This document shows positions 5,827 through 63,747 of a stretch of 64,000 bases of DNA, piece after piece. Origin of the DNA: Pseudonocardiaceae bacterium (lineage in GTDB: Bacteria; Actinomycetota; Actinomycetes; Mycobacteriales; Pseudonocardiaceae); NCBI GenBank assembly GCA_050699715.1, contig JBOHFR010000009.1:28941-92940 (forward strand), written 5' to 3'. The notes beneath the pieces were generated by a model that worked only from the letters and a program-made list of their open reading frames with translations, was not told the DNA's origin and made no database searches. Every line of letters starts with the position of its first letter. Positions within the stretch are counted from its first letter, which is position 1. The position numbers and the translations under genes are program-made.

Positions 5827-6434
5827 TGCCGGCTCACCGCAGGTTGGCTGTACACCACGTCGATCAGTGCCGCTTCGACGAACACCAGGCTGGTCAACGA
5901 CGCCAGCGCGCACCGCCGGCGCCGCGGGTCGTGCCAGAGCCGCCGCCCGGTCAGCTGCCGGATCACCACGCAGATCGGCAGCTGATGGGACACGCAGACC
6001 GCTTCATGCCCGGCGGCCTGCTCGCGGGCCCGGTGCACGGCGGCGAGCATCCGGGCCGCGATCTCCCGGTACGGCTCACCCCAGGACGGCCGGAACGGGT
6101 TGCGCAGCTTGGGCCAGGACCGCGGATCGCGCAGCGCTCCATTGCTGACCGACACTCGGGTGCCCTCGAAGACATTGCCCGCCTCGATCAGCCCGTCGTC
6201 GGTGGCTAGGCCCAGGCCGTGTCTCGCGGCGATCGGCGCCGCGGTCTGCTGCGCCCGCAGCAACGGCGAGGCGACCACGTGCACCACGTCATAGTCCCCC
6301 AGGTGCGCCGCGACCCGCTGCGCTTGGCGCAGGCCAACGTCGGAGAGCCAGAAACCGGGGAGCCGGCCGTAGAGGATCCCCCCCGGATTGTGCACCTCGC
6401 CGTGGCGCAGCAGATGGACCACGGTTCGGCTCAT
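5823..6434 (-). CDS. Histidine phosphatase (phosphoglycerate-mutase-like) family protein
   Basis: N-terminal 'LLRHGEV' (RHG motif). 4-nt overlaps with both neighbours. Rv0525-like position. Confidence 0.8.
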
Positions 6435-21905: not shown

Positions 21906-23255
21906 TTACGCTTCGGCGGTGGGTCGGACTAGCAGCGCCTGACCAGCAGCGGATGTGCCGGTCAGTAGGGCCTGCTCTGCGGCGGGTTCCAGACCGGCCC
22001 GCAGGCCGAGAGAGATGATCTCCTCCGTGCAGATACCCTTCTGGAAAGTCCCCTTGGCCGCACTCGACCAGTAGCCGTCCTGGTGGGAAGACCAGTTCGC
22101 TGAGGCAGCTCTTGGGTCGATGTCAGCGGGTGATCGGGTGACGACAAGCAAATAACCACCCGGACGTACGAACTGGGCGGCGTGCTGCAGGGCTTGGATG
22201 CGTTGCCAGGGGTCGGGCAGGACGTTGAGCACGAAGATGTTGGCGACCAAGTCATACTGACGATCTTGCTTGGTGGTCCAGCCGAAGCCTGGGTGCGGGT
22301 CCCAGCCATCCGCATCCAATCCAGCAGCCCGATAATGGTCGACATCGCTGCCGCGCCCGCAACCGTGGTCCAGGACACTAGCAATGCCAAGCCGGGGTAC
22401 GAAGACATCGACGACGGTACGGGCGAACGGGGACGGACGAACGCGGCTCATCGCGGTCTTATGCGGTTGACACTCGGAACGGGTGAACAGGGCGCGGTCA
22501 GTCGGCTCGGGCAGCAGCGCGAACAGGGCTTCTCGATCCTCCACGGCGACGGTGTCGAGCGTGACCGGGACGTCCATGAGAATGCCGGAATGGTCGGTGA
22601 ATGCCTGCTCGCCAGCGCGAGTGGAATGATCGTATCGGACGTTGACCATCGGAAGCAGGTGACCGGGAACCAGAGCGAGGTCGCACCGAAACCGGCTGCG
22701 CAGGCCTGACCGTTGACGCTCAATAGTGAACTGCGGAGTCTCGGTGGCGGTAGCGTCGGCGAGGCCGTTATCAACCAATAACTCGGCGAACGGTTTGCGA
22801 TCTATGGAACTGTTGAAGTTGCTGGGCCGTCCGTTGTTGAGGCCGTCAACCGGACGAGGGGCGAGGTTGAAGTCTCCGCAGGCGAGTATAGGCCGTCCGT
22901 TTTCGACGGCAATAATCTCCTGGAATCGGCAGAGCTGGCGGCGACGAGAGGTAGCCGAGCGGCAGTCGAGGTAGGTGTTGTACGCCACTAGCCAGCCTAG
23001 TTCCAGGCGTTGGACGAAACTTTCTAGTCGGGAAACCGGTGGGATGGGGACCTGTTCTGCGCTCCAGCAGAAAAGGTCCCCATCTCCGCCGACTGACCTG
23101 TAGGCGGCCAAGTTGACCGCAGTACGGTTCACTGGCTTCCACGGCTCCTGGGCGACCAGCACATCCACGTGGTGGTAATGCAGCCAAGCTGTGAGTTTTG
23201 CTCGTGCGGCGGGGTTGCCAAGGCGCTTGTTGAGGTTTATTGAGGCTAGGCGCAC
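21906..23255 (-). CDS. Fusion protein: EEP (ExoIII/APE1-like endonuclease/exonuclease/phosphatase) domain + SAM-dependent methyltransferase domain
   Basis: EEP motifs 'INLNKR', 'VLVAQE', 'GDFNLAP', 'FTDHSGILMDV'. C-terminal MTase motif I 'VLDHGCGRGSD' and 'VRPGGYLLVV'. Confidence 0.7.
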   Translation of the reverse strand: MRLASINLNKRLGNPAARAKLTAWLHYHHVDVLVAQEPWKPVNRTAVNLAAYRSVGGDGDLFCWSAEQVPIPPVSRLESFVQRLELGWLVAYNTYLDCRSATSRRRQLCRFQEIIAVENGRPILACGDFNLAPRPVDGLNNGRPSNFNSSIDRKPFAELLVDNGLADATATETPQFTIERQRSGLRSRFRCDLALVPGHLLPMVNVRYDHSTRAGEQAFTDHSGILMDVPVTLDTVAVEDREALFALLPEPTDRALFTRSECQPHKTAMSRVRPSPFARTVVDVFVPRLGIASVLDHGCGRGSDVDHYRAAGLDADGWDPHPGFGWTTKQDRQYDLVANIFVLNVLPDPWQRIQALQHAAQFVRPGGYLLVVTRSPADIDPRAASANWSSHQDGYWSSAAKGTFQKGICTEEIISLGLRAGLEPAAEQALLTGTSAAGQALLVRPTAEA

Positions 23256-23271
23256 AAAATCTCCTCGTCAA

Positions 23272-24273
23272 CTACAGAGTAACAGCGGTTCCCGATCGGA
23301 CTTCCTCGTCGAATGCGTTCCACAACAAGTTGAGTGGATGCGTCGGCGTATATTGCTCCCGCTCGCCCTTGCGGGCGAACACGCCGGTGACCAGTTCAAG
23401 CATTGGATCGAAGTCTTCGGCGAACGCAACGAGTCGAAAGTCAGAACCGCCGGGGAGTCGCCCTTCGACGGCCGCTCGCCCGATAGCCTTAGAGACGATC
23501 ATGCATCCGTATATCATTCCAGAGCGTAGTAGCGCCAGGCCATAGTAGATGTCGTCGATAGTAGTCGCGATAGTCAATTTGTTGCGAAAGTCACTACCGT
23601 ACCAACGCGAAAGAAATTCCACAATCACACCGCCGGACGGGATCACGAGCGGGGCCGACGGCAGTTTTTGTCGCCCGACCGCATTTGCTGCAAGCTCTCG
23701 CCGGGGCAAGTTCGTCAACAGTGCAAGTCCTTCACGATGCCATTCGAGGAAATCGTACTGGCCAAGAAATTCGAGACTTCCAACCGCTGAGGCGAACCCG
23801 CCGCACATCAGGTCAACCTCCTTGGTGTCCAGTCGAGTGAACGTATCTTTGGTGCGCACGTGCACTATTTTAAGTTCGATCTCACGGGACTGGAATTCAT
23901 TACTAACACGTTGCCATACCCGACTTAAGAAATCCAGGGTGAACTCAGTGGTTCCTACCGAAATTGTCTGCCCCAGACGGCGCCGGGCGCCGTCTATTGA
24001 TGATTTCCATGCGGTCAGGGTAGTACGGGCCAATTCGACGAACTGCCATCCGGACGGTGTGAACAGGAATTGCTTGCCACGTCCCTGCTTGATTACCAAC
24101 TGCTCTCCGCACATTTTCCGGAAGCTGCGGTTGAGTGTATCCAGCTGCTTTTGCACGCTGGACTGCTCTCGGCCTAGCACCCGGGCCGCGCTGAGAGCCG
24201 AACCGGTCTCGGCCACCAGTACCAGGGTGCGCAGCTGATCGAATGTGGTCTCCAACAGTCCCGCGCCGACCAT
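23272..24273 (-). CDS. LysR-family transcriptional regulator
   Basis: 'FDQLRTLVLVAETGSALSAARVLGREQSSVQKQLDTL' HTH. Start taken at 'MVGAGLLE'. Visibly AT-richer than its surroundings. 16 nt upstream of the nuclease-MTase gene and divergent from the 24503+ operon. Confidence 0.8.
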   Translation of the reverse strand: MVGAGLLETTFDQLRTLVLVAETGSALSAARVLGREQSSVQKQLDTLNRSFRKMCGEQLVIKQGRGKQFLFTPSGWQFVELARTTLTAWKSSIDGARRRLGQTISVGTTEFTLDFLSRVWQRVSNEFQSREIELKIVHVRTKDTFTRLDTKEVDLMCGGFASAVGSLEFLGQYDFLEWHREGLALLTNLPRRELAANAVGRQKLPSAPLVIPSGGVIVEFLSRWYGSDFRNKLTIATTIDDIYYGLALLRSGMIYGCMIVSKAIGRAAVEGRLPGGSDFRLVAFAEDFDPMLELVTGVFARKGEREQYTPTHPLNLLWNAFDEEVRSGTAVTL

Positions 24274-24502
24274 CTCGACCCCGCCAAGGTGCGGCGTGCT
24301 CGTCAACCTATCGTCCTTTACCAACTCCGCACCGCCTTCTTTTCCGGTGACAAAATATTCGATCAAACATTTGAAGTGCACCAGATCACAGTTCCAGTTG
24401 GAGCCACCTCTAGATGTTCGACAGCACATCTAGACGCCTGAAACTTGATCAGGGAATATTTGACCATGGGCTCACCAACCTACGCGGACGGAGGTGGAGC
24501 GG
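24274..24502. promoter_or_regulatory. Divergent promoter/operator region between the LysR gene and the Dcd-like operon
   Basis: Inferred only from the divergent LysR-target arrangement. No operator identified. Confidence 0.35.
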
Positions 24503-25462
24503 ATGTGGACAGCGGGCGTGCCCACAAAGCTGATTGACTCCGGCGACGTCGGCTGGCCGAAACAGTCGATCACGTGCCAGCTGCGGCTGCTGGGCGGTTC
24601 GGGCCGCAACGGCAACGGCATGACTTCCGACGTCGATGCGACCACGCAGCGGGTGGTGGTCCTCACCGAGGAGGCTAGGGTGCCCAAGTTGATGATCCAT
24701 TCCGGCGGCAGTGTGAAGAGCGGCGCATACTACCGTGGCGGTAACAGCTTCCCGATCTGCCCGATCGAACCTCACGCTGGTGCCCTGACGACCGCTGGTC
24801 GAGCGGTCATTCCACTCGAATCCGCAAGCCGATTCACTACCCAACGCATAACCTCAAGATGTACAGAACAGCTGAAACAAGCACTGGAGACGAAGAAGAT
24901 GTTTTTAGACGAATTGGCAGTGCGGTCGCTCATCAACGAAGGCAGGCTAGATTGGGGCGGTGAGCTCCGGCGTGATTCCCTCCTGTTGACCCTCGGCAAC
25001 CGGTTGCAGTCAATGGCGCACCGCCCGCCAGCGGTGGTGGACCTGACTGATCAGGACCAGATTGACGCGATCTATGGCGAGACCCTGGTCGGATGGCATT
25101 CTTTCACCCTGCGACGCGGTGAGCTGGCACTCTTCCACGCGGATCACTCGGTGGCGCTCCCGCGTAGCGTGGGCGGGTTCATCGGCGGGTTGAGCCACAT
25201 GGCGAGGCTCGGTCTCACGGTGCATCTGGACACGCCTATCGTCGATGCCGGATTTCACGGAGTACTGACCATCGAGATGTTCAATGCAGGCCCGTCCGAC
25301 GTGATCCTTCGGCCGGGGATGCCGGTCGCGAAGGTACTCCTGTACCGCGTCGGCGACGGTGCGCTCGTTGAGCCGTATCACCACGTTTTCTACGGAAACG
25401 AAGAGCACCTCGGAAGCAAATACGCGTCCGAGTTCTTCTCGGCGCCCGCCACGGAGGGGTGA
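24503..25462 (+). CDS. dCTP deaminase/dUTPase-fold protein with a ~130-aa N-terminal extension of unknown function
   Basis: C-terminal 187 aa are Dcd-like ('GGLSHMARLGLTVH', 'DAGFHGVLTIEMFNAG', 'VAKVLLY'). The upstream in-frame 135 codons have strong third-position GC bias over about the first 85 codons. GGAGG lies 8 nt before the ATG at 24503. Alternative start: ATG 24899 (GGAGA RBS). Confidence 0.65.
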   Translation: MWTAGVPTKLIDSGDVGWPKQSITCQLRLLGGSGRNGNGMTSDVDATTQRVVVLTEEARVPKLMIHSGGSVKSGAYYRGGNSFPICPIEPHAGALTTAGRAVIPLESASRFTTQRITSRCTEQLKQALETKKMFLDELAVRSLINEGRLDWGGELRRDSLLLTLGNRLQSMAHRPPAVVDLTDQDQIDAIYGETLVGWHSFTLRRGELALFHADHSVALPRSVGGFIGGLSHMARLGLTVHLDTPIVDAGFHGVLTIEMFNAGPSDVILRPGMPVAKVLLYRVGDGALVEPYHHVFYGNEEHLGSKYASEFFSAPATEG

Positions 25463-25463
25463 A

Positions 25464-26087
25464 GTGATCGACTGCGCTTTCTGCGATGAGTTCGCCCAGC
25501 CGACCGAGGCGACCTGGATCGTGGCTCGCACGCAGGGCCGGGTGGTTCTCCCGACGATCGGCTGCCTCACCCAGGGCTACCTGCTCTACATGCCGCACGA
25601 GCACACGCTCGCGTTCGCCGATCTCGACGACGCGGAACTGCACGAGTGCGAGCAGGACATCGACAGCCTGCGCAGCGCATTGGCCGACCGGTACGGTCCG
25701 ATGATCGTCGCCGAGCACGGCCCGCGGGAGTGCGACCTCGGAGCGGGCTGTTGTGACCACGCACACATGCATCTGATCCCGGTGCCAACCCCGGATCGGG
25801 TAGTCGGGGAGTACTTCGAGATCGGGGGGCCGACAGAACCGTACCGGACGCTGGCGGAGTGCCTCGCCTCCGTCGATGAGGCCTACGTGTATGTCTCACC
25901 AGCGCCTACAGAGCACTACATTCGGCCGGCGACGGAGTTTCCCCGGCAATGGGTGCGTCGGGTGTGCGCGGATATTTACGGCAAGGCGTCCCAATGGGAC
26001 TGGCGCGACCATCCCTTCGACCTGGAGCGCCAGCGGACGTACGATGCACTGATCGGAATTCCACTGCTGCCGTCCCGGATACCTTGA
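25464..26087 (+). CDS. HIT-superfamily (histidine triad) nucleotide hydrolase/transferase-like protein
   Basis: 'CAFCDE' N-terminus and triad 'HAHMHLIPV'. GTG start 1 nt after the Dcd-like stop, with GGAGGGG upstream. Confidence 0.65.
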   Translation: MIDCAFCDEFAQPTEATWIVARTQGRVVLPTIGCLTQGYLLYMPHEHTLAFADLDDAELHECEQDIDSLRSALADRYGPMIVAEHGPRECDLGAGCCDHAHMHLIPVPTPDRVVGEYFEIGGPTEPYRTLAECLASVDEAYVYVSPAPTEHYIRPATEFPRQWVRRVCADIYGKASQWDWRDHPFDLERQRTYDALIGIPLLPSRIP

Positions 26088-50200: not shown

Positions 50201-51079
50201 GAGCACTGTCAACTTGGTTGCCTGCCTTGTGGCTGGGAGGATCGCCGGGGTGCTCGCGGTGGGGTGGGAGGGGCTGGGCTTGGTGGGGGACAAGGCACCG
50301 TCCTACACGGGGTTTCGCTTCCCGGTGGAGATCATTAGCCACGGTGTGTGGCTCTACCACCGGTTCCCGCTGAGCCTGCGCGAGGTGCGGGAGATGATGC
50401 TGGAACGGGGCGTCGTGGTCTCCCACGAGACGGTGCGGCAGTGGTGTGCGAAGTTCGGGCAGAGCTACGCCAACGGGCTGCGCCGCCGCCGGCCACGCTC
50501 CGGGGATACGTGGCACCTTGACGAGGTGTTCATCACGATCAACGGCAAGCGTCAGTATCTGTGGCGGGCGGTGGACCAGCACGGGACCGTGCTGGACATT
50601 CTGGTCACCTCCCGGCGGGACGCCAAGGCCGCGACCAGGTTCTTCCGCAAGCTGCTGCGGGGGTTGCGGTCCGTGCCTCGGGTGCTGGTCACCGACAAAC
50701 TGGCCAGCTACGGGGTGGCTCATCGGCGGTTGACGCCGGGGGTGGAGCACCGTCGGTCGAAGTATCTGACTAACCGGGCGGAGAACTCTCACCAACCGAC
50801 CCGGCAGCGCGAACGCGGGGTGAAACGCTTCACCTCAGCGGGGCACGCGCAGCGGTTTCTGTCCGCGTTCAGCGGGATATCACCACACTTCCGGCCCCGT
50901 CTCACCTGCTCCACGCCGAGGAATACCGACGCGAGATGGCCCACCGCTTCAGTACCTGGAACGACGTCACCGGGCTGACCACCGCAGCCTAAACCACCGA
51001 CAGGACCAGACCGCCCCCTCCTCAACCACGCACTGAATGATCACCACCGCTCGTCAGACCGAACAAGTTGACAATGCCC
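50201..51079 (+). mobile_element. IS6-family insertion sequence (~879 bp)
   Basis: Terminal inverted repeats GAGCACTGTCAACTTGGTT (left) and GGGCATTGTCAACTTGTTC (right, reverse complement), IS26/IS6100-like 'GGCACTGT' ends. Single transposase gene. No 8-bp target duplication visible. Confidence 0.8.
50214..50992 (+). pseudogene. IS6-family DDE transposase with a C-terminal frameshift near 50895
   Basis: 'FRFPVEIISHGVWLYHRFPLSLREVREMMLERGVVVSHETVRQWCAKFG', 'WHLDEVFITINGKRQYLWRAVDQHG', 'LVTDKLASY'. The expected tail 'HLLHAEEYRREMAHRFSTWNDVTGL' is in another frame after a C-run. Confidence 0.75.
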
Positions 51080-52891: not shown

Positions 52892-54454
52892 ATGCCCAGG
52901 AAAGCGGGACATTCCGCGAAAGCCGAGCGTGATCAGCTACGCGACCGCCTGCGTGCCGTGGGGTGCTCAGTGGCGCAGATCGCCGCGGAGATGAGCCGCC
53001 GGCTCAACCTACGGCCCCGGCTGGCCTGGCGGCTCGCCCTGGACTGGCCGCAGTGGAAGCTGGCCCAGCGGTACAACACGCTGCACCCCGGAGCCCGGCT
53101 CTCCGATCACCGGGTCAGTGAGTACGAAAACTGGCCCCACGGTGGCGCCCCACCCAGCCTGCGCTACCTCGCCAGGTTGGCCGTCACCTATGGTCACGGG
53201 TGCACAGTGTCCCAGCTGGTGGACGCCGATGATCTGGAACAGTTCACTCCGGCGGATCGCTGCCTGCTCACCTCGTCCCCGGGCGGGTCCACAGCCACCA
53301 CGATCACCGCCCTGGCGCGGACCACACCGGCAGACCACGCCGACCCCGATAAGATGCCTGGACACCGGAGCGGTGACACTGTCTCTATCCGGGGCAGCCG
53401 GCGGATCGTGCGCTGTGACGCGCGTGGTGTGCCGATCCGCGAGGAGGTTATCATGGCAGCCGAGGAATCCGCCCAGTTCCATCGCTGGAGCGCCACTACC
53501 AACGTCGATGACGACGTGCTCGAGCAGATGACCGCCGACGTGGCCGAGCTAGCTTGGCGCGAGCAGGTCGACCCGCCCGCCACCACCTTCGCGCGCCTGC
53601 TCGGCGCCCGGGATGACGTGTTCCGCCTGATCGCGGGACGCCAGCAGCCTCGCCACACCACCAGCTTGTACAAGATTGCCGGGCAGATCTGCGGCATGCT
53701 GTCCATCGTCACGTTCGACCTGGGGCATCCGCACGCCGCGAACACCCATGCCCGGACCGCACTGCACTGCGCCGAGGTGTCCGGTCACACCCCGTTGCGG
53801 GTGTTCATCCGTTGGTCCCAGTCCACTATGGCGTACTGGGACGGTCGCTACGACGAGGCCGCTCAGCTCATGGAGTCCGCCCTGCCCGATGCCACCAGCG
53901 GCACCACCTTGCTACGGCTGGCCAGCCAACAGGCTCGCATCAGCGCTGCCCGTCAACAATCCGACGAGGTCAGCCGGGCACTGGCGCTCGCCACGTCCGC
54001 CCCCACCGAGCGCACCTCCGACGAACCAGGCGTGCTTGGTTTCGACGCTGGGATGGCCGCCTGTTACGCCAGTGAAGCCCACTACGCGCTCGGCGGCACG
54101 GAGCATTTGGACGCTGCTGTGGACTGGGCGCGAATCTCGCTGGACGAGTTCACCGCTGAACCGCAGCCCAAAGCCCAGTACGTCGCCACCGCTCGCTTCG
54201 ACCTCGCCCTCGCCCACCTGGCCCGAGGTGACCTCGACGCGGTCAGCGAGCACCTCGCCTCCGTGCTGCGCGCCACCCAGGCTGAATACCGCACGGTACC
54301 GATCATCGGCCGGGCCCGCGCCCTGAACACCCTGCTGGCCCAGCGGCTCGACCTCACCTCCAGCGCTCTGACCGCTCTGCGTGATGACCTCAGCGAGTTC
54401 TCCACCCACCCCGCCCCCACCCCGGCAGGATTGGAGCCAGATCCCACCACCTGA
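52892..54454 (+). CDS. XRE-family HTH regulator with a TPR-like C-terminal domain
   Basis: '[36 protein letters not shown]...[12 protein letters not shown]' plus a long helical C-terminus. Same architecture as 30523..32076. Confidence 0.8.
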
Positions 54455-54484
54455 CTCACCGCTGACGCCGAAGGGGATTCCCGT

Positions 54485-54967
54485 ATGCCTGTGCAGGTCG
54501 CGGTGTGTGGACCCCGCCACTGCACCGAGGAGGACACCACCCACGCCTACGAGGTGGGACGCTTGCTCGCCAGGGCGGGTGCCGTCGTCATCTGCGGCGG
54601 CGGCACCGGCGTCATGGCCGCTGCCGCCGCCGGAGCCCGCGCCGAGAACGGCCTCGTGATCGGCATCCTCCCGCACGACACCGCCGAGGACGCCTGCCCG
54701 GACCTCTCCGCGGTGATCGTGACGAACCTGGGCGAGGCCCGCAACGCGGTCATCGTCTGGTCCGCCGACGCCGTCATCGCCATCGGCGGCTCCTGGGGCA
54801 CCCTGTCCGAAATCGCCCTCGCCAAACGACGCGGCACCATCCCCGTCATCACCCTGGGCGGCTGGACCATCCTCACCCACAACGGCACCCCACTGCCGGA
54901 CCCGACCACCCCCGCCGCCACTGCGCAACAAGCAGTCGATCTTGCCCTCGCCGCCGCGCGCAGCTAA
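54485..54967 (+). CDS. LOG/TIGR00725-family (SLOG Rossmann) protein
   Basis: 'VICGGGTGVMAAAAAGA' and 'AIGGSWGTLSEIALA' (GGGxGxM and PGGxGTxxE-like motifs). Confidence 0.75.
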   Translation: MPVQVAVCGPRHCTEEDTTHAYEVGRLLARAGAVVICGGGTGVMAAAAAGARAENGLVIGILPHDTAEDACPDLSAVIVTNLGEARNAVIVWSADAVIAIGGSWGTLSEIALAKRRGTIPVITLGGWTILTHNGTPLPDPTTPAATAQQAVDLALAAARS

Positions 54968-55742
54968 GCCCTACAGCCGCGCGATCGGCGCGCGGTAATC
55001 CCAGGTGGATCCTGCCGACCAGTCTCAGCTCGGAAGCAGTACGGCCAAGTCGTGAGTCGGAGACCACCGCCCGACTCCACCGCTGAACGGAAGGGAGGCC
55101 TGCGGCGCGGGTCGACACCAGAGCCAACCAGCCCGCCGAAACACCGCTCATCCAGGTAGTCCAGCAACGCCGCGTTCGCCAACGACGCACGGGACCCGCC
55201 CGGAGTCTCCCGCAGCGTGGCGCACTCGCCCAGGCAGCCTCGCGCGGGAAACGGAATCGTCCCCAGCACGACAGGACGGTCAGCCCACACCCGTTCATCG
55301 AGCTGGCGCAACAACCACACAGGAGTGAAGCCATGAACATCATCGACCCGCAAGCAAACCGAGACCATACCCACAGCCTCCCGCATAGCCCGCCTACCAC
55401 GGCGGCCTGCAGCGCGACCTGGGCTGGCTGCCCGAGCAGATCGGTGACGGTGAGGCAGTCAACGAGGGCAACCTCGTAAACGACGCGCCCGACCGGCCAC
55501 GTGAGACGGCGGAGGACCGCGAGCAGCGCCGCAGTCGATAAGGTCCTGGACCCCTGCGGTCGAAGGAGACGCGCCAGCCTTCTCCGGCGGGCTGGGTACG
55601 GATCAAGCATCCGAGAGCGCAACGCCGCGCGCGTCCGCGTTCACCCACCGCACGACACCGTCACCGAGTCGAAGGACCAACCGGGAAAATCTTCAAAGTC
55701 GATCTTTGATCTTCTTGTCCAGGTCGTTGACCTGGTGTTTTG

Positions 55743-55815
55743 TGGGCCGCCTGGGGCTCGAACCCAGAACCGACAGATTAAAAGTCTGCAGCTCTACCCA
55801 TTGAGCTAACGGCCC
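55743..55815 (-). tRNA. tRNA-Lys (anticodon UUU)
   Basis: Hand-folded cloverleaf. Acceptor GGGCCGT/GCGGCCC. D-arm GCTC-AATGGGTA-GAGC. Anticodon stem GCAGA/TCTGT with loop CTTTTAA. T-arm CTGGG-TTCGAGC-CCCAG. CCA not encoded. Confidence 0.9.
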
Positions 55816-56064: not shown

Positions 56065-56565
56065 GTGCCTGCTCCTCACCCTGCTAAGTTCCTTCGGAGG
56101 GTGGTCAAACTTGCTCGCCTGGGCGGGCAACCAATCGTCATGTTGGCGAAACAGCTCTCGATCAGCGAGCCGTGTCTGTGGAAGGGGATGGCTCAGGCCG
56201 ACGCTGATGAGACACACATGCCCGATAGCCTAATCGCTGGACGAGAACACGGGAGTGTCAGACGAAGTCTCCGTCACGGGACTCACCGTATACGAGTAGT
56301 CACGAGTGGTCATCGCGGCGCGAAGGGACCGATTGTCATGAGGGATGTGTTCCTCGAAGTGGGCGGTTACGAGGCTCGCGATTTCGAGCGATGGTCGGCA
56401 ATTTCCGCTATCACGAAGTTGCTGTGGAACGGGTTCGACGTGAGTGCGACACAGGTCCGCGTTGAACCGTGCCGGACCGTGCCTGACGCCCCCAACGAGA
56501 CCATCGTGATCGACAATGAGGACGGAGACGCCTGGAGGGCGCCGTGCGTACACACTGGCACCTGA
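56065..56565 (+). pseudogene. Debris: IS3-family OrfA-like HTH fragment followed by a GHKL-ATPase-like N-terminal fragment
   Basis: 'PAKFLRRVVKLARLGGQPIVMLAKQLSISEPCLWKGMAQAD' (IS3/IS911 OrfA-like). 'AISAITKLLWNGFDVSATQVRVE...IVIDNEDG' (Bergerat-fold N-box-like). Neither part is complete. Confidence 0.4.
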
Positions 56566-56777
56566 GATCCCGCGCGGCAACGGTGAGGCGAGGCCCAAAC
56601 CTGTTCGTGCTCAGCGGCCCCCACACGGGAGTCTGCGGCGAGAGTCGTCGGCAAGAAGGCGGAACCCGTGCCAGGGCAGAGGCGCCGCGTCCCGCGCCGG
56701 GACGCATCGATCGCGTGTGCTCTCCGGATGGACTCGTCGTCGACCGGCCTCAGGAAAAAAGAAATGATGAACTGACC

Positions 56778-57740
56778 ATGTCGCGGCTAGTATTTGTTCA
56801 TGGCATCGGCGGGTCCCGGGATAGCGACCGCGAGTCCTCGTCTTAGCTTGATGCCCTGCTGGAGGGAGCTCGTCGAGCTGGTCACTCGCAGTGGGTCTCC
56901 GCTGTGGAACGCGGGTTCGGGCCTATGATCCGATTCGCCAACTATTCAGACCTGTTCTCCGCACCACAGAGCCAGGGTGGGGGCGCCGAGGAGCTCGATG
57001 AGCGAGAGGCGGAGATTCTCACAGGCCTCCTGCTGGAAGCAATAGACGTGCAGGCGATCCGGGCCTCTGAAGAGCCGATACGGCGCAGGCTGGCGCACGC
57101 TCGCGCGGAGTTGCAACTCGACGGGCAAGCGCAGGGAGCGGGAGACCTTGTCCGGCGTGCGATCAACGCGGCCACGACACTCATGGGCATCGGCCCCCTG
57201 CGGCGCGGTGGTCAATGGATCGCTGGTCAGTTCCTGGTCGGTGAGTTGGCCCAGGTGGCCCGCTATCTCGCCCGTTCCGAGCAAGATGAGTTTGGACAGA
57301 CGCTTGATGCCCAGATCCGGGGGCGGGTGAGCGAAGCGTTCGGAGACGCTCCGCTGATCATCGTCGCCCACTCGCTGGGAACAATCGTCTGTTGGGAAGC
57401 TCTGCACCACTATGCGGGTATCGTATCTCTGTTCGTGACGCTCGGTTCCCCGATCGCCTTACGGACGGTGGTGCTGCCCCGGTTAGTACCAAGCCCGCCC
57501 AGCACGCCGGAGTCGGTCAGGAACTGGCTGAACTTTTGGGACCGGGACGACATCATCGCCGCGCGTCCTCACCTGGAGGCAGACATCGCTCCCAACTCCC
57601 TCTACGTAGTACCGAGGACAGCGCGGGTGGACTCCGACGGGCTCTGGGTACACACCGCCACCAAGTACCTGACCCAGACCAGCGTCGCTGGGCCCATCGC
57701 TGAGGCACTGGGTCGAATTGACTCCGGGGGCCAGAATTGA
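56778..57740 (+). pseudogene. Alpha/beta-hydrolase (lipase-like) with an in-frame TAG at 56844..56846
   Basis: 'MSRLVFVHGIGGS' is in the same frame as ORF 56904..57740 and separated from it only by the TAG. Nucleophile elbow 'LIIVAHSLGT'. The stop overlaps the next gene's start (ATGA-type, 57737). Confidence 0.6.
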
Positions 57741-59062
57741 GCGATAGGCGGCACCTGCTCGTCGTTGCTGTGCAGTGCAGGGCGGAGCAGGAACTGGCAC
57801 GGTTGGCCGAGGCCGCCGGTGGCCTTTGTTCTGTGCTCATTGACGAGACGCTCGGCGCCTGCAAGCCCGGGTTGCCTGATGGCAGGGTGATTCTGTCCGG
57901 GGAGGATCTCACCGCGGATGACATCAATGAAAAGGTACGCATCGCAATCCGACACGCGGGTGAGAATGACGCCACCCTGGTGCTGGCATTCCTCGGTCAC
58001 GGCTTTGTTCCTGGCCAGGTACCGACGCTCTACCTGATGGCTCCTGAGTCGGCGGCCTCGAGCGGTGACTACGCCACCGTGGAGCACTTGGCGCTGTGCT
58101 ACCCGGTGAGCGATGGCACCTGTCGGACCCAACTGGCCAGGTTCGTGGTGGCGTTGGCAGTGGAAGCGGGCCGGGATATCGAGGCCCAGGAGCTGAGGGA
58201 GTGGGCAACCTCGGTCGAGGGGATCGTGGAGCTGAACAACGCGGTCGAGGCGCTGCGGCAACGCGACGACGTCCGGCGAGTTCGCCTCATCGTGAGTCTG
58301 CACGTCTCGTTAGCCGGTGACTGGCCCGACACGATCGTCGCCTGGCTGCTTCACGCTGGCAAGATGTATGAGCGGACGGAGATCCCGTGTGAACCAGACA
58401 AGCTGGGGGTAGAAAGCGCACTCATTGATGCGGTCGACTGGGCTGAGGACCATGCGAGGAAGCTCGGGCTGATGTTGCGGCACGTAGACGTGGCCGTCCC
58501 GACGGCGCTCCTTCTCCGGTGGCGACCGGAGGAGGTCGCCTATGTGCAGCGGCTGGGTCTAGAATACGAAGTCGTCACTCGATGGAGCGATCGACTCAAG
58601 CGATCAAAGGCGATGGCCCGGGCGATCAACCACGCAGCCAGACGGCTCGCCGAGATCGCCGCATGCGCAACGGTGGCGCCAGTGGACTGGCTGGACAGTC
58701 ATGACCTGGCGGACCTTGCTCAACTGCGAGACCAGCTCGTCAACGGTAGATACAGCAAGGCGCTCGCTCTGGCCAGCCGCCCTCGCGACGCTGAGGACCT
58801 GATGGCACTCCTGCTCACCCACTCGCCAATTGTGCTGTGGCCGCATGTCGTGGATGAGTTTCCTGAGGAGAGGCGCGGCTGCTTGGCGACGTGCTGGCAC
58901 CGCATGCCGGGGGAGTTTCTCACCATGTACCGGATGCGGTGGCGCGATGAACCCACCGGGGACGCTGGCGACCTACGGGCAGTGTGGGACGACGAGGACT
59001 GGCTCAACTTCTGCCGTTCCTTCCAGTACGGAGAGTCAGCGAACTCAGGGAGTACGTCATGA
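57737..59062 (+). CDS. vWA-MoxR-associated protein (VMAP-like): caspase-like N-terminal region + VMAP-C-like C-terminal region
   Basis: N-terminus 'HLLVVAVQ...ATLVLAFLGHGF' (caspase/CHAT-like beta-alpha pattern with a GHG; catalytic Cys not identified). Position and overlaps (4 nt each side) tie it to the MoxR and vWA genes. The family call is from memory of published in-silico descriptions. Confidence 0.6.
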   Translation: MSDRRHLLVVAVQCRAEQELARLAEAAGGLCSVLIDETLGACKPGLPDGRVILSGEDLTADDINEKVRIAIRHAGENDATLVLAFLGHGFVPGQVPTLYLMAPESAASSGDYATVEHLALCYPVSDGTCRTQLARFVVALAVEAGRDIEAQELREWATSVEGIVELNNAVEALRQRDDVRRVRLIVSLHVSLAGDWPDTIVAWLLHAGKMYERTEIPCEPDKLGVESALIDAVDWAEDHARKLGLMLRHVDVAVPTALLLRWRPEEVAYVQRLGLEYEVVTRWSDRLKRSKAMARAINHAARRLAEIAACATVAPVDWLDSHDLADLAQLRDQLVNGRYSKALALASRPRDAEDLMALLLTHSPIVLWPHVVDEFPEERRGCLATCWHRMPGEFLTMYRMRWRDEPTGDAGDLRAVWDDEDWLNFCRSFQYGESANSGSTS

Positions 59063-60024
59063 GCTGGAGTTCTCTTTACCAGGGCGATGGGGAGCCGCGG
59101 GATGTGCAGCTACCGGAACCACCGCCGTGGCGAACCTTCCCGAGGCCATCTCTGGGCAGGGTCTTTCAACCGCCCGAAGGGTTGGTAGACGCCGTGAACG
59201 CGGCTCTGTGCTTGCGTCGCCCGATGTTGATCACAGGTGTTGCGGGGTCGGGCAAGTCCACGGTCATCGAGTCGGTGGCCGAAGAGCTCCAGCTGGGAGC
59301 GGTACTGCGTTGGCATGTCACCTCGCGCAGTACCCTAGACGACGCGCTGTACCGCTACGACGTGCTCGGGCGCATCCACGCTCAGCAACTGGATCAGGCA
59401 ACCGGAACTCACAGCGTTCTCGGCGGCCCCCATGCTCGCCCTGCCGAAGATATAGGGCCCTTCCTGCAGCTTGGCCCGCTGGGAACGGCGCTGGTGCCGA
59501 CGCCGCGACCTAGGGCGTTGCTGGTCGACGAGATCGACAAGGGTGACCTCGACTTACCCAGCGATCTGCTCGAAGTGCTTGAGCGTGGCGAGTTCGAGGT
59601 CCGCGAGCTAGCCCGCTATGAGCAGGAAGAGGTCGCCGTCCGGGAGTGGGGCAGCGACCGACGGCATGTGCTCAGAAGGGGCCGGGTCCAGTGCACCGAG
59701 TTCCCCTTCATTGTGATGACAAGCAACGGCGAGCGAGATTTCCCCCCACCGTTCCTGAGGCGTTGTATCCGCTTCAGCATGCCAGCACCCACCTCCAGCA
59801 TGATCACCCGAGTCGTCGAGGCTCATCTGAGCCAGCATGTGACAGATGGTGGCCCGATGGCCGATCTGGTGGAACAGTTCATGCGGCGCATTGAAGGACG
59901 CCAGCAACTCGCGGTCGACCAGCTGCTCAACGCGGTGTTCCTGCTAAGCGGGGACGAGGCACCCCAAGGGCACCAACGTGAACGGCTCGTTGAGAGCCTG
60001 CTGCGCGAGTTGTCCCGTGCCTGA
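59059..60024 (+). CDS. MoxR-like AAA+ ATPase
   Basis: 'LPEPPPWRTFP' N-terminus. Walker A 'GVAGSGKST'. Walker B 'LLVDEIDKGDLDLPSDLLEVLERGEFEV'. 'FIVMTSNGERDFPPPFLRRC'. Confidence 0.85.
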   Translation: MSWSSLYQGDGEPRDVQLPEPPPWRTFPRPSLGRVFQPPEGLVDAVNAALCLRRPMLITGVAGSGKSTVIESVAEELQLGAVLRWHVTSRSTLDDALYRYDVLGRIHAQQLDQATGTHSVLGGPHARPAEDIGPFLQLGPLGTALVPTPRPRALLVDEIDKGDLDLPSDLLEVLERGEFEVRELARYEQEEVAVREWGSDRRHVLRRGRVQCTEFPFIVMTSNGERDFPPPFLRRCIRFSMPAPTSSMITRVVEAHLSQHVTDGGPMADLVEQFMRRIEGRQQLAVDQLLNAVFLLSGDEAPQGHQRERLVESLLRELSRA

Positions 60025-63000
60025 AAACATCGAGTCGCTGGTCGGCTGGCTGAGGGAGTTCGACCGGCGGCTGGACGCTACGGCGATCGCGGACACGCTC
60101 TGGCTCTCGGCAAGTATGCTCGCTGCAGGCCTGTCCGCCGCGACCCCCCTTCCGCCGAGGACCGGGACTCACTGGCAACCGGACTTATCGCGACATCTCG
60201 AGCGGAAACTGCTGGAGCCCTCCAGGAGGCTGCACGACATCGCCCTGACCAGGAAAGATCCAACCGGTGCCCGGCGTGGGCTGCCGGTGCAGGCTCCGAA
60301 GGGACGGCCACTCTCCAGGCAGCTGGATCTCTCGCGGTCACTGCGCCCGTTCAAACGGCCGTGGCCGGTCGGCCTTCGATCCGAGATCGACCTCAACGCC
60401 ACTGCGAGGCAGTACGCCCGTACCCACAGGCTGATCCCCGTGTTCCGGGCCGCCCCTGAACACTGGTTCGGCGCGGACGTTGTGGTCGACGATTCGGCGT
60501 CGATGACGATCTGGGACGATGCCGTTACCGAGTTCACCCAACTGCTGCACCGGCTCGGCGCATTCCGGACTATCCGCTCCTGGCAACTCACAGTGCAGGG
60601 CTCAACCGCAAGCCTGCGAGACCTACGCGGTGATATTCGTCAACCAGATCAACTCCGTTCGGCTGATCATCGACGCGTCATCCTCGTACTGTCGGATTGC
60701 TCGTCCGACGGGTGGTTCACGTCGGCGCCTTGGCAGATCCTGAGGAGGTGGGCGGAGTCAACGTCGACAGCGCTGATTAGCCCGCTGCCGATGAAACTCT
60801 GGGACCGAACTGGCCTGGATCTGCCGGCTGTGAGAGCAGGCCCAGGCTTACCCGGCTGCCCCAACGTCGGCCTCCGATACCGGCTCCCGGTGCTGTTGCA
60901 CGATGCCGCCCATAAAGGCCAGCGTTGGGTACCGCTGCCAGCTATGGCTTTGACGCCCCACTCACTGGAGCGTTGGGCGGCGACGTTGATGCGGGCCGAC
61001 CCCACCGGTTGCGACGTGTTGCTCATCCCGCCGGCGGGTCGGTTGTCTGACGCTGACAACGTGTCCGAGGACGTTTCCGACGATCCGGTCGGGCCTCTGG
61101 ATGGTCACGAACGTGTCAAGACATTCCGGCTGACCGCCTCATCGACGGCAGTCCGACTCGCGACCCTCTGCGCGCCACTCACCCAGGTGAGCCTCCCCGT
61201 TCTCGAGATCATCGGGCAGACACTGGTGCCCGAAGCCACCACGGTGGACTTGGCCGAAGTCATCCTGAGCGGCCTGTTCACTGTCTCCAACCCAAACGGG
61301 CACACAATGTTGGGCTTTCGCGACGGTGTGCAGGCCGCGCTGCAGAAGATGCTCATAGCTCCCGAGGCGTGGCGAACCTATGAGACCCTAAGCCGCTATG
61401 TCGCTGAAAACGTCGCCCCGAGGGGAAGGTTCACCGCGCTGGTGGACGACCCAGTAGGTGAGGGGCAAATCTCCGTTGCATTGCGGCCGTTTGCCGAGGC
61501 ATCGCATGACGTGCTCCGCCTTCTCACCAATACTGCTCCTGTAGTTGCGACTGCTCCTGTGGTTGCGCCAGCGGCACCCACCTCACCACCTGAGACAACG
61601 GAGACGCCGCAGGTCGTGGTCAGGGGCCCGCGCCAGGCGGCACAGCTGGTTACGTTGCCTAAGACATCACAGGTTGCGGTCAGGGGCCCGCACCGGGCAT
61701 CGCTGGTCACGCTGCCCAAGATGCCGCACGGTGATCTGATGGCGCCGGTGCTCGATGACCCTCAGGTGCCCGAGCGCAAGCGGCTCTGTCCGAATCCCGA
61801 CTGCCGCCCTCAACCAAGCCGGGCCCGCAACGGCCGGCCCGGCTTGGTTGAGGGCTTCTGCTCGCGATGTGGGACTGAGTACTCTTTCCGGCCGCTACTG
61901 CCGCCCGGAGCGCTGATCCACGACGGCCAATTCGAGGTAGAGGGCGCGATAGCCCACGGTGGGCTCGGCTGGGTGTACCGGGCCTGGGATCGTCGGGTTC
62001 AGCGCCAGGTGGTGCTCAAGGGCCTGATCAACCCCGAAGACCCGGACACCCGCCAAGCTGCAGTCGCCGAGTTGGCCGCGCTGGCCAAAGCCACCCACCC
62101 GAACATCGTCACCGTGCACACCGTAGTCCGCCATCCCCACCCACTCACCGGACACGATGTCGACTACATCGTGATGGAATGCCTCAGCGGCAAATCACTC
62201 AAGCAACTGCGCGAGGAGCGCCCAGACAGCGATCCTTACCTGCCGGTGGATCACGTCTGCGGGTTTGCGCTCATGGTGCTGGCCGCGCTAGATCACCTGC
62301 ACGTGCAGCTTGGCCTGCTGCACTGCGACGTGTCTGCGGACAACGTGTTCCACTCCACCAGCGGTGTCAAACTGATCGACCTCGGGGCGGTCCGCCGCAT
62401 CGACGACTGGGACAACCTGATCATATGGGGGAGAACTGGCTACCAGGACCCGGACATCACCACCCACGGCCCCTCGGTCGCGACCGATCTCTACAGCGTC
62501 GCCCGGATGATGGCCATCCTCAGCTTCCCCTTCCCAGGATTTTTCGACGACGAGCCAATTCCAGGCCCAGATGAGGTGGAGCTGCTGGCGCAGCACCCTT
62601 CCTTCGCCAGACTGCTGCGCCACGCGACCAACCCCGGCCCCCAGCACCGGTTCACCTCCGCCGCGGACATGGCAGAACAGCTCGAAGGTGTGCTGCGAGA
62701 GATCCGCGCGGTCCAGGAGAGCCGACCGTTCCCCGCCGCCTCGACCCTGTTCGGGCCAGAGCTACGGGTAGTAGGGGCCGATCCGGCCACCTTCCCCACC
62801 GAGGCCCCGGACCCAGTCGCCGCAGCGCTGGCCCTGCCCGACCCCCAGGTCGATCCCACCGATCCACACGTCAGTTTGCTGGCCACGATCGGTGCGGAGA
62901 ATCCTCATGAGGTCGAGCGGGTGCTGGCTTCGTTGCCCGACCCGTCGTTGGAGACGCGGTTGCGGGTGGTGCGCGCCCGGATCGAGCTGCGCCATCCCCA

Positions 63001-63457
63001 TACCGCCAACGACCTCGACGCGCTAGCCCATCAACAACCGGATGACTGGCGGGTCGACTGGTACCAAGGGCTGCACTCGCTAATCGGCGGCCACGTCAAC
63101 GACGCCCGCCAGCACTTCACCGCTGTCCTTGACGCGATACCGGGAGAAGCCGCGCCCAAACTAGCCCTAGCACTATGCGCGGCCCGCGAGGGTGCCCCTG
63201 AGTTTGCCGCGCAGTACTACGCGAGCGTGTGGCGAACCGACCAGTCCTACGTGAGCGCCGCGTTCGGGCTCGCCCGCGCTCGGTTGGCCCTCGGTGACAT
63301 TGCTGGCACGGCCGCCGCGTTGCAGACCGTACCGGCGAACTCCCGCTACGCCATCCCGGCCCAGCTGTGCGCGATCCTGGCCCAGGCCCGTGGATACACC
63401 ACCGGGCAACCCCCGTCCCCGACTTCTTCACCGCCGCCGAGCAACTGTCCACCCTAG
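60017..63457 (+). CDS. vWA (MIDAS) domain fused to a PknG-like rubredoxin-Ser/Thr kinase-TPR module; reading frame breaks near 63410
   Basis: vWA: 'VVVDDSASM' (DxSxS), 'VILVLSDCSSDGW'. Rubredoxin-like 'CPNPDC...CSRCG'. Kinase nearly collinear with the remembered M. tuberculosis PknG ('VVLKGL', 'YIVMECLSGKSLK', 'KLIDLGAVRRI', 'GPSVATDLYSV', 'RFTSAADMAEQLEGVLREI', 'FTAVLDAIPGEAAPKLALA', 'AAFGLARARLALGD'). GTG start overlaps the MoxR stop by 8 nt. Confidence 0.85.
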   Translation: MPENIESLVGWLREFDRRLDATAIADTLWLSASMLAAGLSAATPLPPRTGTHWQPDLSRHLERKLLEPSRRLHDIALTRKDPTGARRGLPVQAPKGRPLSRQLDLSRSLRPFKRPWPVGLRSEIDLNATARQYARTHRLIPVFRAAPEHWFGADVVVDDSASMTIWDDAVTEFTQLLHRLGAFRTIRSWQLTVQGSTASLRDLRGDIRQPDQLRSADHRRVILVLSDCSSDGWFTSAPWQILRRWAESTSTALISPLPMKLWDRTGLDLPAVRAGPGLPGCPNVGLRYRLPVLLHDAAHKGQRWVPLPAMALTPHSLERWAATLMRADPTGCDVLLIPPAGRLSDADNVSEDVSDDPVGPLDGHERVKTFRLTASSTAVRLATLCAPLTQVSLPVLEIIGQTLVPEATTVDLAEVILSGLFTVSNPNGHTMLGFRDGVQAALQKMLIAPEAWRTYETLSRYVAENVAPRGRFTALVDDPVGEGQISVALRPFAEASHDVLRLLTNTAPVVATAPVVAPAAPTSPPETTETPQVVVRGPRQAAQLVTLPKTSQVAVRGPHRASLVTLPKMPHGDLMAPVLDDPQVPERKRLCPNPDCRPQPSRARNGRPGLVEGFCSRCGTEYSFRPLLPPGALIHDGQFEVEGAIAHGGLGWVYRAWDRRVQRQVVLKGLINPEDPDTRQAAVAELAALAKATHPNIVTVHTVVRHPHPLTGHDVDYIVMECLSGKSLKQLREERPDSDPYLPVDHVCGFALMVLAALDHLHVQLGLLHCDVSADNVFHSTSGVKLIDLGAVRRIDDWDNLIIWGRTGYQDPDITTHGPSVATDLYSVARMMAILSFPFPGFFDDEPIPGPDEVELLAQHPSFARLLRHATNPGPQHRFTSAADMAEQLEGVLREIRAVQESRPFPAASTLFGPELRVVGADPATFPTEAPDPVAAALALPDPQVDPTDPHVSLLATIGAENPHEVERVLASLPDPSLETRLRVVRARIELRHPHTANDLDALAHQQPDDWRVDWYQGLHSLIGGHVNDARQHFTAVLDAIPGEAAPKLALALCAAREGAPEFAAQYYASVWRTDQSYVSAAFGLARARLALGDIAGTAAALQTVPANSRYAIPAQLCAILAQARGYTTGQPPSPTSSPPPSNCPP

Positions 63458-63747
63458 AACTTGACGAATGGCAGCGCGAGCAGGCAATCGCGGAAGTGCT
63501 CGAAACCGTCCTGAGCTGGGAGGACGCGGGCCGACCGTGGTCAGCGAGGACAACCACACCGATCCCGGCCACCCTGTTCGGCCACCCCTTCAACGAGCAC
63601 GGCGTGCGCGACCGGCTGGAGTCCGCCTACCGCAAGCTCGCTCAGCTAGCTCCCACCAAGGAGCAACGGATCCGCTTCGTCGACCAGGCCAACGACTGCC
63701 GCAACCGGCGCACCTTGAGGAGCGCCTGGCGCAGGATCTGGAGCTAG
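63400..63747 (+). pseudogene. Out-of-frame C-terminal continuation of the PknG-like gene
   Basis: ORF 63367..63747 encodes 'ATLFGHPFNEHGVRDRLESAYRKLAQLAPTKEQRIRFVDQANDCRNRR'. This matches the PknG C-terminal end ('ILGFPFTSHGLRLGVEASLRSLARVAPTQRHRYTLVDMANKVRP'). The shift coincides with a C5 run at about 63410..63414. Confidence 0.7.

Follow-up and report, generated by a model that had tools for sequence, protein, structure and literature searches.

Organization and conservation of the operon

We analyzed 64,000 nucleotides (nt) of contig JBOHFR010000009.1 (hereafter the window) from an uncultured Pseudonocardiaceae metagenome-assembled genome (MAG), and describe here a four-gene locus at positions 56778..63747 in which a von Willebrand factor A (vWA) protein is fused to a PknG-type kinase. 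The NCBI protein records MGH3865619, MGH3865621 and MGH3865631 map to the contig of the source MAG. All four open reading frames (ORFs) are on the (+) strand and follow one another in the order alpha/beta-hydrolase (gene 1), VMAP (gene 2), MoxR-type AAA+ ATPase (gene 3) and vWA::PknG (gene 4). Genes 1 and 2 overlap by 4 nt in the sequence TTGA at 57737-57740, genes 2 and 3 by 4 nt in ATGA at 59059-62, and genes 3 and 4 by 8 nt in GTGCCTGA at 60017-24. Genes 2 and 3 are preceded by G-rich runs resembling Shine-Dalgarno sequences. The coordinates of all features are collected in Table 1.

The arrangement is not peculiar to this contig. The order hydrolase, VMAP, MoxR and vWA protein, with overlapping stop and start codons, was also present in L001, a Logan contig with ~94% nucleotide identity to the window and with genes 1-3 intact; in the metagenome contigs L003 and L004, whose VMAP is 75% identical to that of the window; and in L006, a Lentzea genome, with a VMAP 57% identical. 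The start of gene 4 lies 8 nt ahead of the MoxR stop in L003 and L006 as well. What varies among the relatives is the C-terminus of the vWA protein, which is NB-ARC in L003 and NACHT-GerE in L006. Because order and overlaps recur in independently called relatives, we regard the operon as a conserved design and not a chance arrangement. A preliminary description of this stretch had reported four co-directional ORFs with short overlaps and expected the genes to be conserved together, and both statements agree with what we found. Its assignment of the locus to the vWA-MoxR-VMAP ternary class of Kaur, Burroughs, Iyer and Aravind is likewise supported by profile matches and gene order (Kaur et al., eLife 2020, PMC7159879). 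The locus very probably belongs to the VMAP-type MoxR-vWA ternary conflict systems, in the subtype that combines a caspase with an alpha/beta-hydrolase, and it has captured a PknG effector; the window carries a relic copy of it.

Table 1. Features of the operon, followed by neighboring features, in window coordinates.
Feature	Position	Strand	Evidence or comparison
Gene 1, alpha/beta-hydrolase pseudogene, in-frame TAG at codon 23	56778..57740	+	Abhydrolase_1, 32.8 bits
Nonsense codon TAG, gene 1 codon 23; TGG (Trp) in L001	56844..56846	+	Comparison with L001
Gene 2, VMAP remnant, 441 aa	57737..59062	+	VMAP-M2, 55.7 bits (cut-off 27.7), profile positions 146-214 only
Junction of 705-nt in-frame deletion (235 codons) in gene 2	58047..58053	+	blastn against L001
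Gene 3, MoxR-type AAA+ ATPase, 321 aa, apparently intact	59059..60024	+	AAA_5, 23.5 bits (cut-off 22)
Gene 4, vWA::PknG fusion, 1243 aa with frameshift repaired	60017..63747	+	ORF and profile calls
vWA / SAV_2336 N-terminal domain of gene 4	60230..61414	+	NF041121 (SAV_2336_NTERM), 318.6 bits (cut-off 200)
18-nt tandem duplication (TAPVVA x2) at end of L003 homology, marking the swap joint	61532..61567	+	TRF
Diverged tandem duplication (60 + 57 nt, ~77% identity) of PknG N-terminal segment VRGPR.A.LVTLPK	61604..61720	+	Compared with P0140 N-terminus
pknG-derived DNA, nearly whole ORF, no flanks	61672..63711	+	84.5% nt identity to L007 10186..12226
PknG-type rubredoxin / zinc-ribbon, four Cys (CPNPDC ... 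CSRCG)	61700..61900	+	PF16919 (PknG_rubred), 50.3 bits
Protein kinase domain of gene 4	61934..62707	+	Pkinase, 75.5 bits
PknG TPR domain, split over two reading frames	62732..63708	+	PF16918; frame A, profile positions 1-241, 182.8 bits; frame B, profile positions 253-339, 69.6 bits
Frameshift, 1-nt deletion in C-rich run	63405..63412	+	Alignment with pknG of L007, L008, L009
Upstream leader travelling with operon, ~590 nt	56186..56777	+	blastn, 94% identity to L001 from 56186 on
tRNA-Lys (anticodon UUU)	55742..55815	-	ARAGORN; 963 nt upstream of gene 1
IS6/IS240-family DDE transposase ORF	50214..50978		122 bits; only clear mobile-element gene near locus

The kinase module of gene 4 is derived from pknG

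The preliminary description had recognized a fusion of the vWA protein to a PknG-type rubredoxin-kinase-TPR module, and profile matches together with an alignment to Mycobacterium tuberculosis PknG (2PZI; 351 bits) confirmed it. The two cysteine motifs of the rubredoxin align to the Cys pairs of 2PZI. The rubredoxin-coding region also contains a 50-nt imperfect palindrome, 88% self-complementary, at 61806-61855.

The source of the module can be named. The C-terminal 669 residues of gene 4 showed 82-84% identity, over 99% of their length, to standalone PknGs of 650-750 amino acids (aa) from Pseudonocardiaceae MAGs, and in alignment A2 the module was 83-85% identical to the standalone proteins P0140, P0141 and P0143, with P0140 the closest and P0143 at 83%. 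P0143 is the product of the pknG gene of L007 (10001..12235), which stands in an operon of Sensor_actino (GlnX-like), SBP_bac_3 (GlnH-like) and pknG genes. Nucleotide homology of the window to pknG ends at the ends of the ORF, and the captured segment is in frame and trimmed almost exactly to the coding sequence. The glnX-glnH-pknG context is absent from the window, where a vWA domain precedes the module and the DNA on either side is not homologous to that beside pknG. Because of this context and these unrelated flanks, and because P0143 holds the glnX-glnH-pknG operon, we consider the module a captured paralogue and not an orthologue. Judged from these alignments, the effector position of the vWA protein is occupied by an almost complete, recently captured housekeeping PknG of the lineage, with N-terminal tail, rubredoxin, kinase and TPR domains. 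At the far end of the segment (63712-63747), a 2-nt difference before the ancestral pknG stop changes NRSWR/T* into NRRTLRSAWRRIWS*, which gives the protein a 12-residue tail; a few bases past the ancestral stop are still similar to the beginning of the next gene after pknG in L007.

The point at which the effector was exchanged could also be located. Among the vWA relatives whose C-terminus is known, L003 is the nearest, at ~78% nucleotide identity. Its blastn homology to the window ends at 61548, and L003 then goes on (~6030-6452) to an NB-ARC domain with the P-loop GLGGVGKTQLA. Since the homology stops there, the exchange between NB-ARC and PknG can be placed within ~50 nt. A short tandem duplication marks this joint, and a longer, diverged duplication of the PknG N-terminal segment follows it (Table 1). 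The longer duplication is shared by the window and L001, and the reading frame of L001 is open across the vWA/PknG joint up to the end of that contig, which corresponds to window position 61759. Because L001 shares the duplication scar, the fusion must predate the split between window and L001 and must have coexisted with intact genes 1-3. The locus offers a clean and datable effector swap, NB-ARC versus PknG at one joint with duplication scars, in which a housekeeping gene has been recruited into a conflict system.

We considered that the fusion might be a mis-join into a resident pknG gene, and rejected this since two other assemblies span the joint and pknG homology stops at the ORF ends. 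Two further contigs carry the window's version of the locus, L002 (a Logan contig, found in 5 samples) and L083 (a second NCBI MAG contig). The ends of L002 (61748) and L001 (61759), which come from two strains, lie 11 nt apart inside the pknG segment, and L083 ends in the kinase domain (62454). These breaks suggest that the genomes may contain a second, very similar copy of pknG, at which the assembly graphs break.

Most kinase residues are in place: the G-loop AHGGLGW, the beta3 Lys (VVLKG, 62009), the alphaC Glu and DLG (62375). The catalytic loop, HCDVSADN (62321-62344) versus YNDLKPEN in 2PZI, keeps Asp and Asn and has Ser in place of Lys. Ser or Ala also occupies this site (D[LV]S/AxDN) in about 100 of 107 close standalone homologues, while more distant PknGs keep DFKPDN. 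The change is therefore a trait of the clade, and we rejected the idea that it arose by decay after the fusion. The Pseudonocardiaceae-MAG clade concerned (P0140-P0250) includes the copy from the glnX-glnH-pknG operon, and housekeeping PknGs with D[LV]SADN may be weak kinases or may act differently.

The module as a whole resembles the PknGs of Mycobacterium and Corynebacterium (2PZI, 4Y0X, 7MXB) in its order of tail, rubredoxin, kinase and TPR and in its G-loop, beta3 Lys, Asp, Asn and DLG. It differs from them in its position behind a vWA domain and outside glnX-glnH, in the Lys to Ser change and in the duplicated N-terminal segment.

Rarity of the fusion and its relation to other vWA-linked kinases

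An exhaustive phmmer search with gene 4 against 1.84 billion cluster representatives returned 98,062 matches. Each of the best 150 covered either residues 1-~560 or residues ~500-1139, and none covered both; the best scores were 577 bits for a PknG-only match and 514 bits for a vWA-only match, where a true fusion would be expected near the sum. All 75 of the 75 loci recovered from 185,579 species genomes, a set that does not include the source genome, matched the PknG part only. A word-indexed search gave 63 vWA relatives with varied C-termini, none of them PknG-type. Metagenome contigs scanned with the junction peptide and a vWA-tail alignment yielded no confirmed locus, in a collection that evidently lacks the Joint Genome Institute (JGI) contigs L003-L005, in which the pattern is present. 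PknG and rubredoxin are mentioned nowhere in Kaur et al. (PMC7159879), and our literature search found no paper linking PknG with vWA or MoxR. The vWA::PknG fusion had been put forward as new, and with no second case among the representatives or the species genomes this assessment stands.

The novelty is confined to the type and origin of the kinase. Its presence as such is not new, because kinase effectors are already described: in actinobacteria, the macromolecule-modifying effectors found most often on vWA components are S/T/Y kinases, which go back to at least two acquisitions from PASTA- or beta-propeller-linked kinases and are mostly catalytically disrupted (PMC7159879). An inactive kinase plus HAD form on vWA proteins was described in the same work. 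We found comparable architectures in P0006 (vWA-Pkinase-TPR_12/TPR_10) and in P0056 and P0061 (vWA-truncated kinase-BTAD-HAD), in which, as in gene 4, a SAV_2336-type vWA domain is followed by a kinase-like domain. Unlike gene 4, these proteins have neither rubredoxin nor PknG_TPR. Since the gene 4 module is 83-85% identical to housekeeping PknG, it represents a separate and much more recent acquisition than the kinases of P0006, P0056 and P0061.

The hydrolase, VMAP, MoxR and vWA components

Gene 1 has the HG of alpha/beta-hydrolases in VHGIGG (56796) and a nucleophile elbow, AHSLG (57366). In the window, L001, L003, L004 and L006 it lies directly upstream of the VMAP start and overlaps it. 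A hydrolase as first cistron had been thought a novel feature of this locus. It is not, because a caspase-bearing VMAP is stated always to have a neighboring alpha/beta-hydrolase gene (PMC7159879).

The product of gene 2 contains a VMAP-type domain, as proposed, and the profile match identifies it as VMAP-M2. What remains of the gene encodes the first ~100 aa of a caspase-like domain (with its His in LGHGF, 57992), the final third of VMAP-M2 and the C-terminal region. Relatives of full length have ~676 aa, nearly all of 76 homologues fall between 620 and 705 aa and all of them carry VMAP-M2, with the full region found in 59 of 59 homologues. We used P0065, a full-length homologue with 92% identity to gene 2 and a VMAP-M2 score of 145 bits, for structural comparison. 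Its AlphaFold (AF2) model had a mean predicted local distance difference test score (pLDDT) of 89.3, and the top Foldseek matches of the N-terminal domain were MALT1 paracaspase, legumain, separase, caspase-8 and SAVED-CHAT. The NCBIfam model caspase_w_EACC1 matched P0065 residues 11-200 (E=2.8e-12), and the caspase His (LGHGF, H77) and Cys (IDTCxA, C128) were conserved in at least 90% of 59 homologues. The claim of a caspase-like VMAP therefore holds for the family in fold, profile and catalytic dyad. It does not hold for the window gene, in which the His is kept and the Cys motif is deleted. Viral contigs scanned with the VMAP family gave no matches and so no sign of a phage-borne system.

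Gene 3 has a Walker A motif (GVAGSGKS, 59236), a Walker B motif (LLVDEID, 59518) and a sensor-1 motif (VMTSN, 59713), and shares 46% identity with its MoxR counterpart in L015, an uncultured Actinomycetota MAG with a canonical trypsin/VMAP-M7/VMAP-C system. Among PDB sequences its matches were weak, to midasin AAA modules. In gene 4, the metal ion-dependent adhesion site (MIDAS) that had been called intact is present as DDSAS at 60488-60502, and the SAV_2336 N-terminal profile suggested for checking the domain matches well above its cut-off. Because PDB sequence searches with the MoxR and the vWA part gave nothing useful, these components required comparison at the level of fold. An AF2 model of the gene 4 vWA domain (pLDDT 81.5) had as its top Foldseek match the NorD vWA in the NorQD complex (E=5e-5), followed by the MDN1 MIDAS domain and the CMG2 vWA.

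The NorD match bears on an alternative in which MoxR and the vWA protein serve as a dedicated chaperone for a second PknG, assembling or regulating it in the service of nitrogen and carbon metabolism, and take no part in conflict. NorQ/NorD likewise combine an AAA+ ATPase with a MIDAS-bearing partner, such pairs are maturation chaperones, PknG is a metabolic regulator, and P0143 is encoded in a glnX-glnH-pknG operon. The resemblance to NorQ/NorD stops at fold: the PDB searches gave no sequence-level relationship, and partners and gene context are other ones. Moreover, vWA homologues of gene 4, members of the SAV_2336 N-terminal family, carry WD40, NB-ARC, TIR, CHAT, helicase, FGE-type or kinase C-termini; the vWA gene is always linked to a caspase-VMAP and a hydrolase; the C-terminal module is swapped between close relatives; and the genes were dispensable enough to decay in the window. 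We therefore consider a purely housekeeping function very improbable and keep to a predicted conflict system.

State of the window copy

Comparison with L001 showed that the window operon is damaged. In gene 1, the TAG at codon 23 corresponds to TGG in L001. In gene 2, blastn aligned window 56186..58050 to L001 2626..4492 and window 58050..61759 to L001 5197..8894, revealing the in-frame loss of 705 nt. This deletion took out the catalytic Cys motif of the caspase, which reads IIDTCTAA in relatives, together with roughly two thirds of VMAP-M2, and the missing 705 nt are present in all 70+ homologues. In gene 4, the frameshift at ~63409 reads CAACC-CCCG relative to three pknG homologues. The preliminary description had noted two lesions, and it was correct about the TAG and probably, as a 1-nt deletion seen in one assembly, about the frameshift; it missed the 705-nt deletion. 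Its suggestion that the operon could be restored by repairing two lesions fails for that reason, because gene 2 has also lost 235 codons and with them the catalytic Cys and most of the presumed sensor region.

The source is a MAG, and the frameshift consists of one nt missing from a run of C in a single assembly, so one might suppose that the lesions are assembly artefacts and that the operon is intact in the living organism. This is extremely improbable: both the TAG and the 705-nt deletion are also found in L002 and L083, each 100% identical to the window, and a clean in-frame loss of 705 nt is unlike a base-calling error. The window copy of the operon is a pseudogenised relic.

Decay appears to have been recent. 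Between window and L001, synonymous divergence (dS) was ~0.1, and the ratio of nonsynonymous to synonymous divergence (dN/dS) was lowest in gene 3 (0.08), followed by gene 2 (0.22) and gene 1 (0.25), and highest in the N-terminal part of gene 4 (0.49). With dN/dS between 0.08 and 0.49, the genes were under purifying selection for most of the divergence of the two copies.

These values have to be weighed against the idea of a neutral accident, in which a duplicated pknG landed in an already failing conflict locus and the fused kinase never served the system. Such an accident would account for a fusion found in one lineage and absent from 1.84e9 representatives and the species genomes, and for a window copy with two verified lesions and one probable one. 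The dN/dS of the gene 4 N-terminal part is the highest of the four genes, and the duplications at the joint are typical of illegitimate recombination. However, L001 has intact genes 1-3 and a frame open at the joint, so that the fusion lived in a system under purifying selection (dN/dS 0.08-0.25), and the captured segment is in frame and trimmed nearly to the ORF. The kinase module also has no surplus of private substitutions: it carries 4 private changes at columns invariant in 60 standalone homologues, and several standalone PknGs show as many. We regard a neutral accident as unlikely, and a captured effector within a VMAP system then still under purifying selection as the better account of the fusion.

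Comparison with known systems and possible function

The classical substrate of PknG, GarA/OdhI, is an FHA protein. A MoxR-vWA system that ends on such a protein has been studied in Schaalia odontolytica, where a September 2026 preprint showed experimentally that the Esr threat-sensing pathway, built on a beta-propeller-type MoxR-vWA module, acts through a Ser/Thr kinase and ends in phosphorylation of an FHA protein (bioRxiv 10.64898/2026.09.08.750141). The locus in the window resembles Esr as an actinobacterial MoxR-vWA pair coupled to a kinase, here the PknG carried by gene 4. It differs in that Esr belongs to the beta-propeller class, has a surface sensor, EsrA, encodes kinase, phosphatase and FHA protein on separate genes, and has no VMAP, caspase or hydrolase. 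Because the Esr relay ends on an FHA protein and GarA/OdhI is one, a kinase-to-FHA output would be plausible by analogy for the present system as well.

The VMAP ternary systems themselves remain the closest comparison. Shared with them are MoxR, a vWA protein with a variable C-terminal effector, VMAP-M2, the hydrolase and the actinobacterial host, as well as the caspase-like VMAP N-terminus and the swapping of effectors between close relatives (PMC7159879). Unlike those systems, the present one has a whole PknG as effector, and in the window it is damaged by a nonsense codon and by the loss of the caspase Cys and of most of VMAP-M2.

Several results weigh against this assignment or against a functional kinase. 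Pfam VMAP-C (PF20028) gave no match to gene 2 or P0065 at E<=10; among the 59 family members that could be aligned it matched only 4, at best with E=1.5e-10, and hhalign of the VMAP family to one bona fide VMAP-C protein was not significant (E=0.054). The assignment of gene 3 to MoxR is marginal, depending on an AAA_5 score close to the cut-off together with context. The preliminary description had proposed a PADLOC comparison, and no catalogued anti-phage system was matched: PADLOC-DB v2 has no model for the core components, genes 1 and 2 had no matches, gene 3 matched only mad8 at 17.5 bits, and gene 4 matched the generic kinase models PD-T4-6 and mad6. That description was aware of no experimental work, which no longer holds for the sister class, now tested through Esr, and still holds for the VMAP class, in that our literature search found no experiments on any VMAP system. 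The fusion is known from one lineage only, and the assembly of the intact strain ends at the joint. The frameshift of gene 4 is seen in the window assembly alone, since L002 ends at 61748 and L083 at 62454; it is probably real, but in a C-run of a single MAG it could be an error. Finally, a catalytic loop without Lys makes the catalytic competence of the fused kinase uncertain, against which stands the same loss of Lys in the standalone parents of the fused PknG.

The results above establish what the domains are, that the operon is conserved, where the kinase came from, at which point it was swapped in, which lesions are present and how rare the fusion is. Beyond them, a mechanism can be outlined for the intact form of the system as found in L001, following the model of Kaur et al. 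(2020) and the analogy with Esr. The middle region of the VMAP (VMAP-M2) would sense a cue derived from an invader. The MoxR hexamer, with ATP, would then remodel the vWA-VMAP complex through the MIDAS site, and this remodelling would activate the caspase-like peptidase and its hydrolase partner. Release of an effector by proteolysis has been considered possible (PMC7159879), and here the PknG module might be freed or unmasked by the peptidase, with the duplicated linker, rich in Arg and Lys, as a possible cleavage site. The module would then act on FHA substrates of the resident PknG such as GarA/OdhI, by phosphorylation or by titration, and central metabolism would be rewired. We infer the sensing, activation and target steps alike by analogy and hold all of them tentatively, as doubtful in their present form.

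In its widest form, the proposal is that the fused PknG bridges a caspase-gated MoxR-vWA immune switch and the PknG-GarA checkpoint, as a releasable kinase or pseudokinase that would shut down or rewire central metabolism upon infection, or that it guards PknG signalling against interference by invaders as a decoy. This we think rather more unlikely still. If true, a bacterial immune system would have put to its own use an almost exact copy of a regulator central to metabolism, and gene 4 would be a single-polypeptide counterpart of the Esr relay from MoxR-vWA through a kinase to an FHA protein.

The decoy variant deserves separate mention, since it would reverse the role of the module. Invader proteins aimed at host PknG signalling would bind the fused copy and thereby trigger the MoxR-vWA-caspase system, in the manner of the integrated domains of plant NLRs. 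The module is a near-faithful copy (83-85%) of the regulator, including its regulatory N-terminal tail, which is duplicated; PknG stands where a close relative has NB-ARC; and the catalytic-loop Lys is missing. However, the standalone PknGs from which the module descends already lack that Lys, so its loss does not set the fusion apart, and we know of no actinomycete-phage protein that targets PknG. The published work can be read both ways: most vWA-linked kinases look catalytically dead and are probably non-enzymatic, but the model places the sensor in the VMAP middle region and the effector in the vWA C-terminus (PMC7159879). An integrated decoy seems to us decidedly improbable, and we retain PknG as a candidate effector.

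The interest of the locus lies in what such an effector would make accessible. Of the predicted immune or apoptosis-like systems of bacteria, the VMAP ternary systems form one of the largest families, and their outputs have so far been guesses. PknG has a solved fold, a likely FHA substrate in GarA/OdhI and understood metabolic consequences, so that the activation logic of a VMAP system could be assayed directly. The value of the locus is limited by a window copy that is dead, by a fusion known from one uncultured lineage and by the kinase effectors already described.

Genomic context

The leader in front of gene 1 travels with the operon, as window and L001 are alike from 56186 on and differ to its left (L001 1-2625 had no match in the window). 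In L001 the operon adjoins an rve_3 transposase in otherwise unrelated DNA, and this placement of operon and leader indicates that the unit is mobile. No sigma-70-like promoter was found in the leader, and a scan for promoters and terminators was uninformative. The G+C content of the locus is 0.63-0.65 versus ~0.68 in the flanks, in a window that is patchy overall.

The preliminary description had placed the locus in an island about 1 kb from a tRNA-Lys gene and among insertion sequence (IS) debris. The tRNA gene is there at about that distance. An island is weakly supported: the different context in L001 and the lower G+C content would fit one, but the operon faces the 5' end of the tRNA gene, and the tRNA 3' end is not repeated anywhere in the 64-kb window. 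We dropped the IS debris, because the small ORFs between the tRNA gene and gene 1 gave no transposase signal in profile scans, and the only recognizable transposase is the IS6/IS240-family ORF. The stretch 52892-54967, between this element and the tRNA gene, encodes an NsdA-family TPR-like regulator of 520 aa (84.8 bits to NF053720) and, directly behind it, a TIGR00725 / SLOG cluster-4 protein of 160 aa (136 bits).

Another PknG paralogue lies near a VMAP system in L015 (9818-19265), where a copy with no glnH context is ~2 kb from a convergent trypsin/VMAP-M7/VMAP-C-MoxR-vWA (DO-GTPase-like) system. We rejected this neighborhood as a meaningful link; it is probably due to chance, being 1 of 75 PknG loci and convergent. 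Within the window, the lowest G+C content, 0.59-0.615 versus ~0.68, was found at 22001-26000, which may be another acquired segment.

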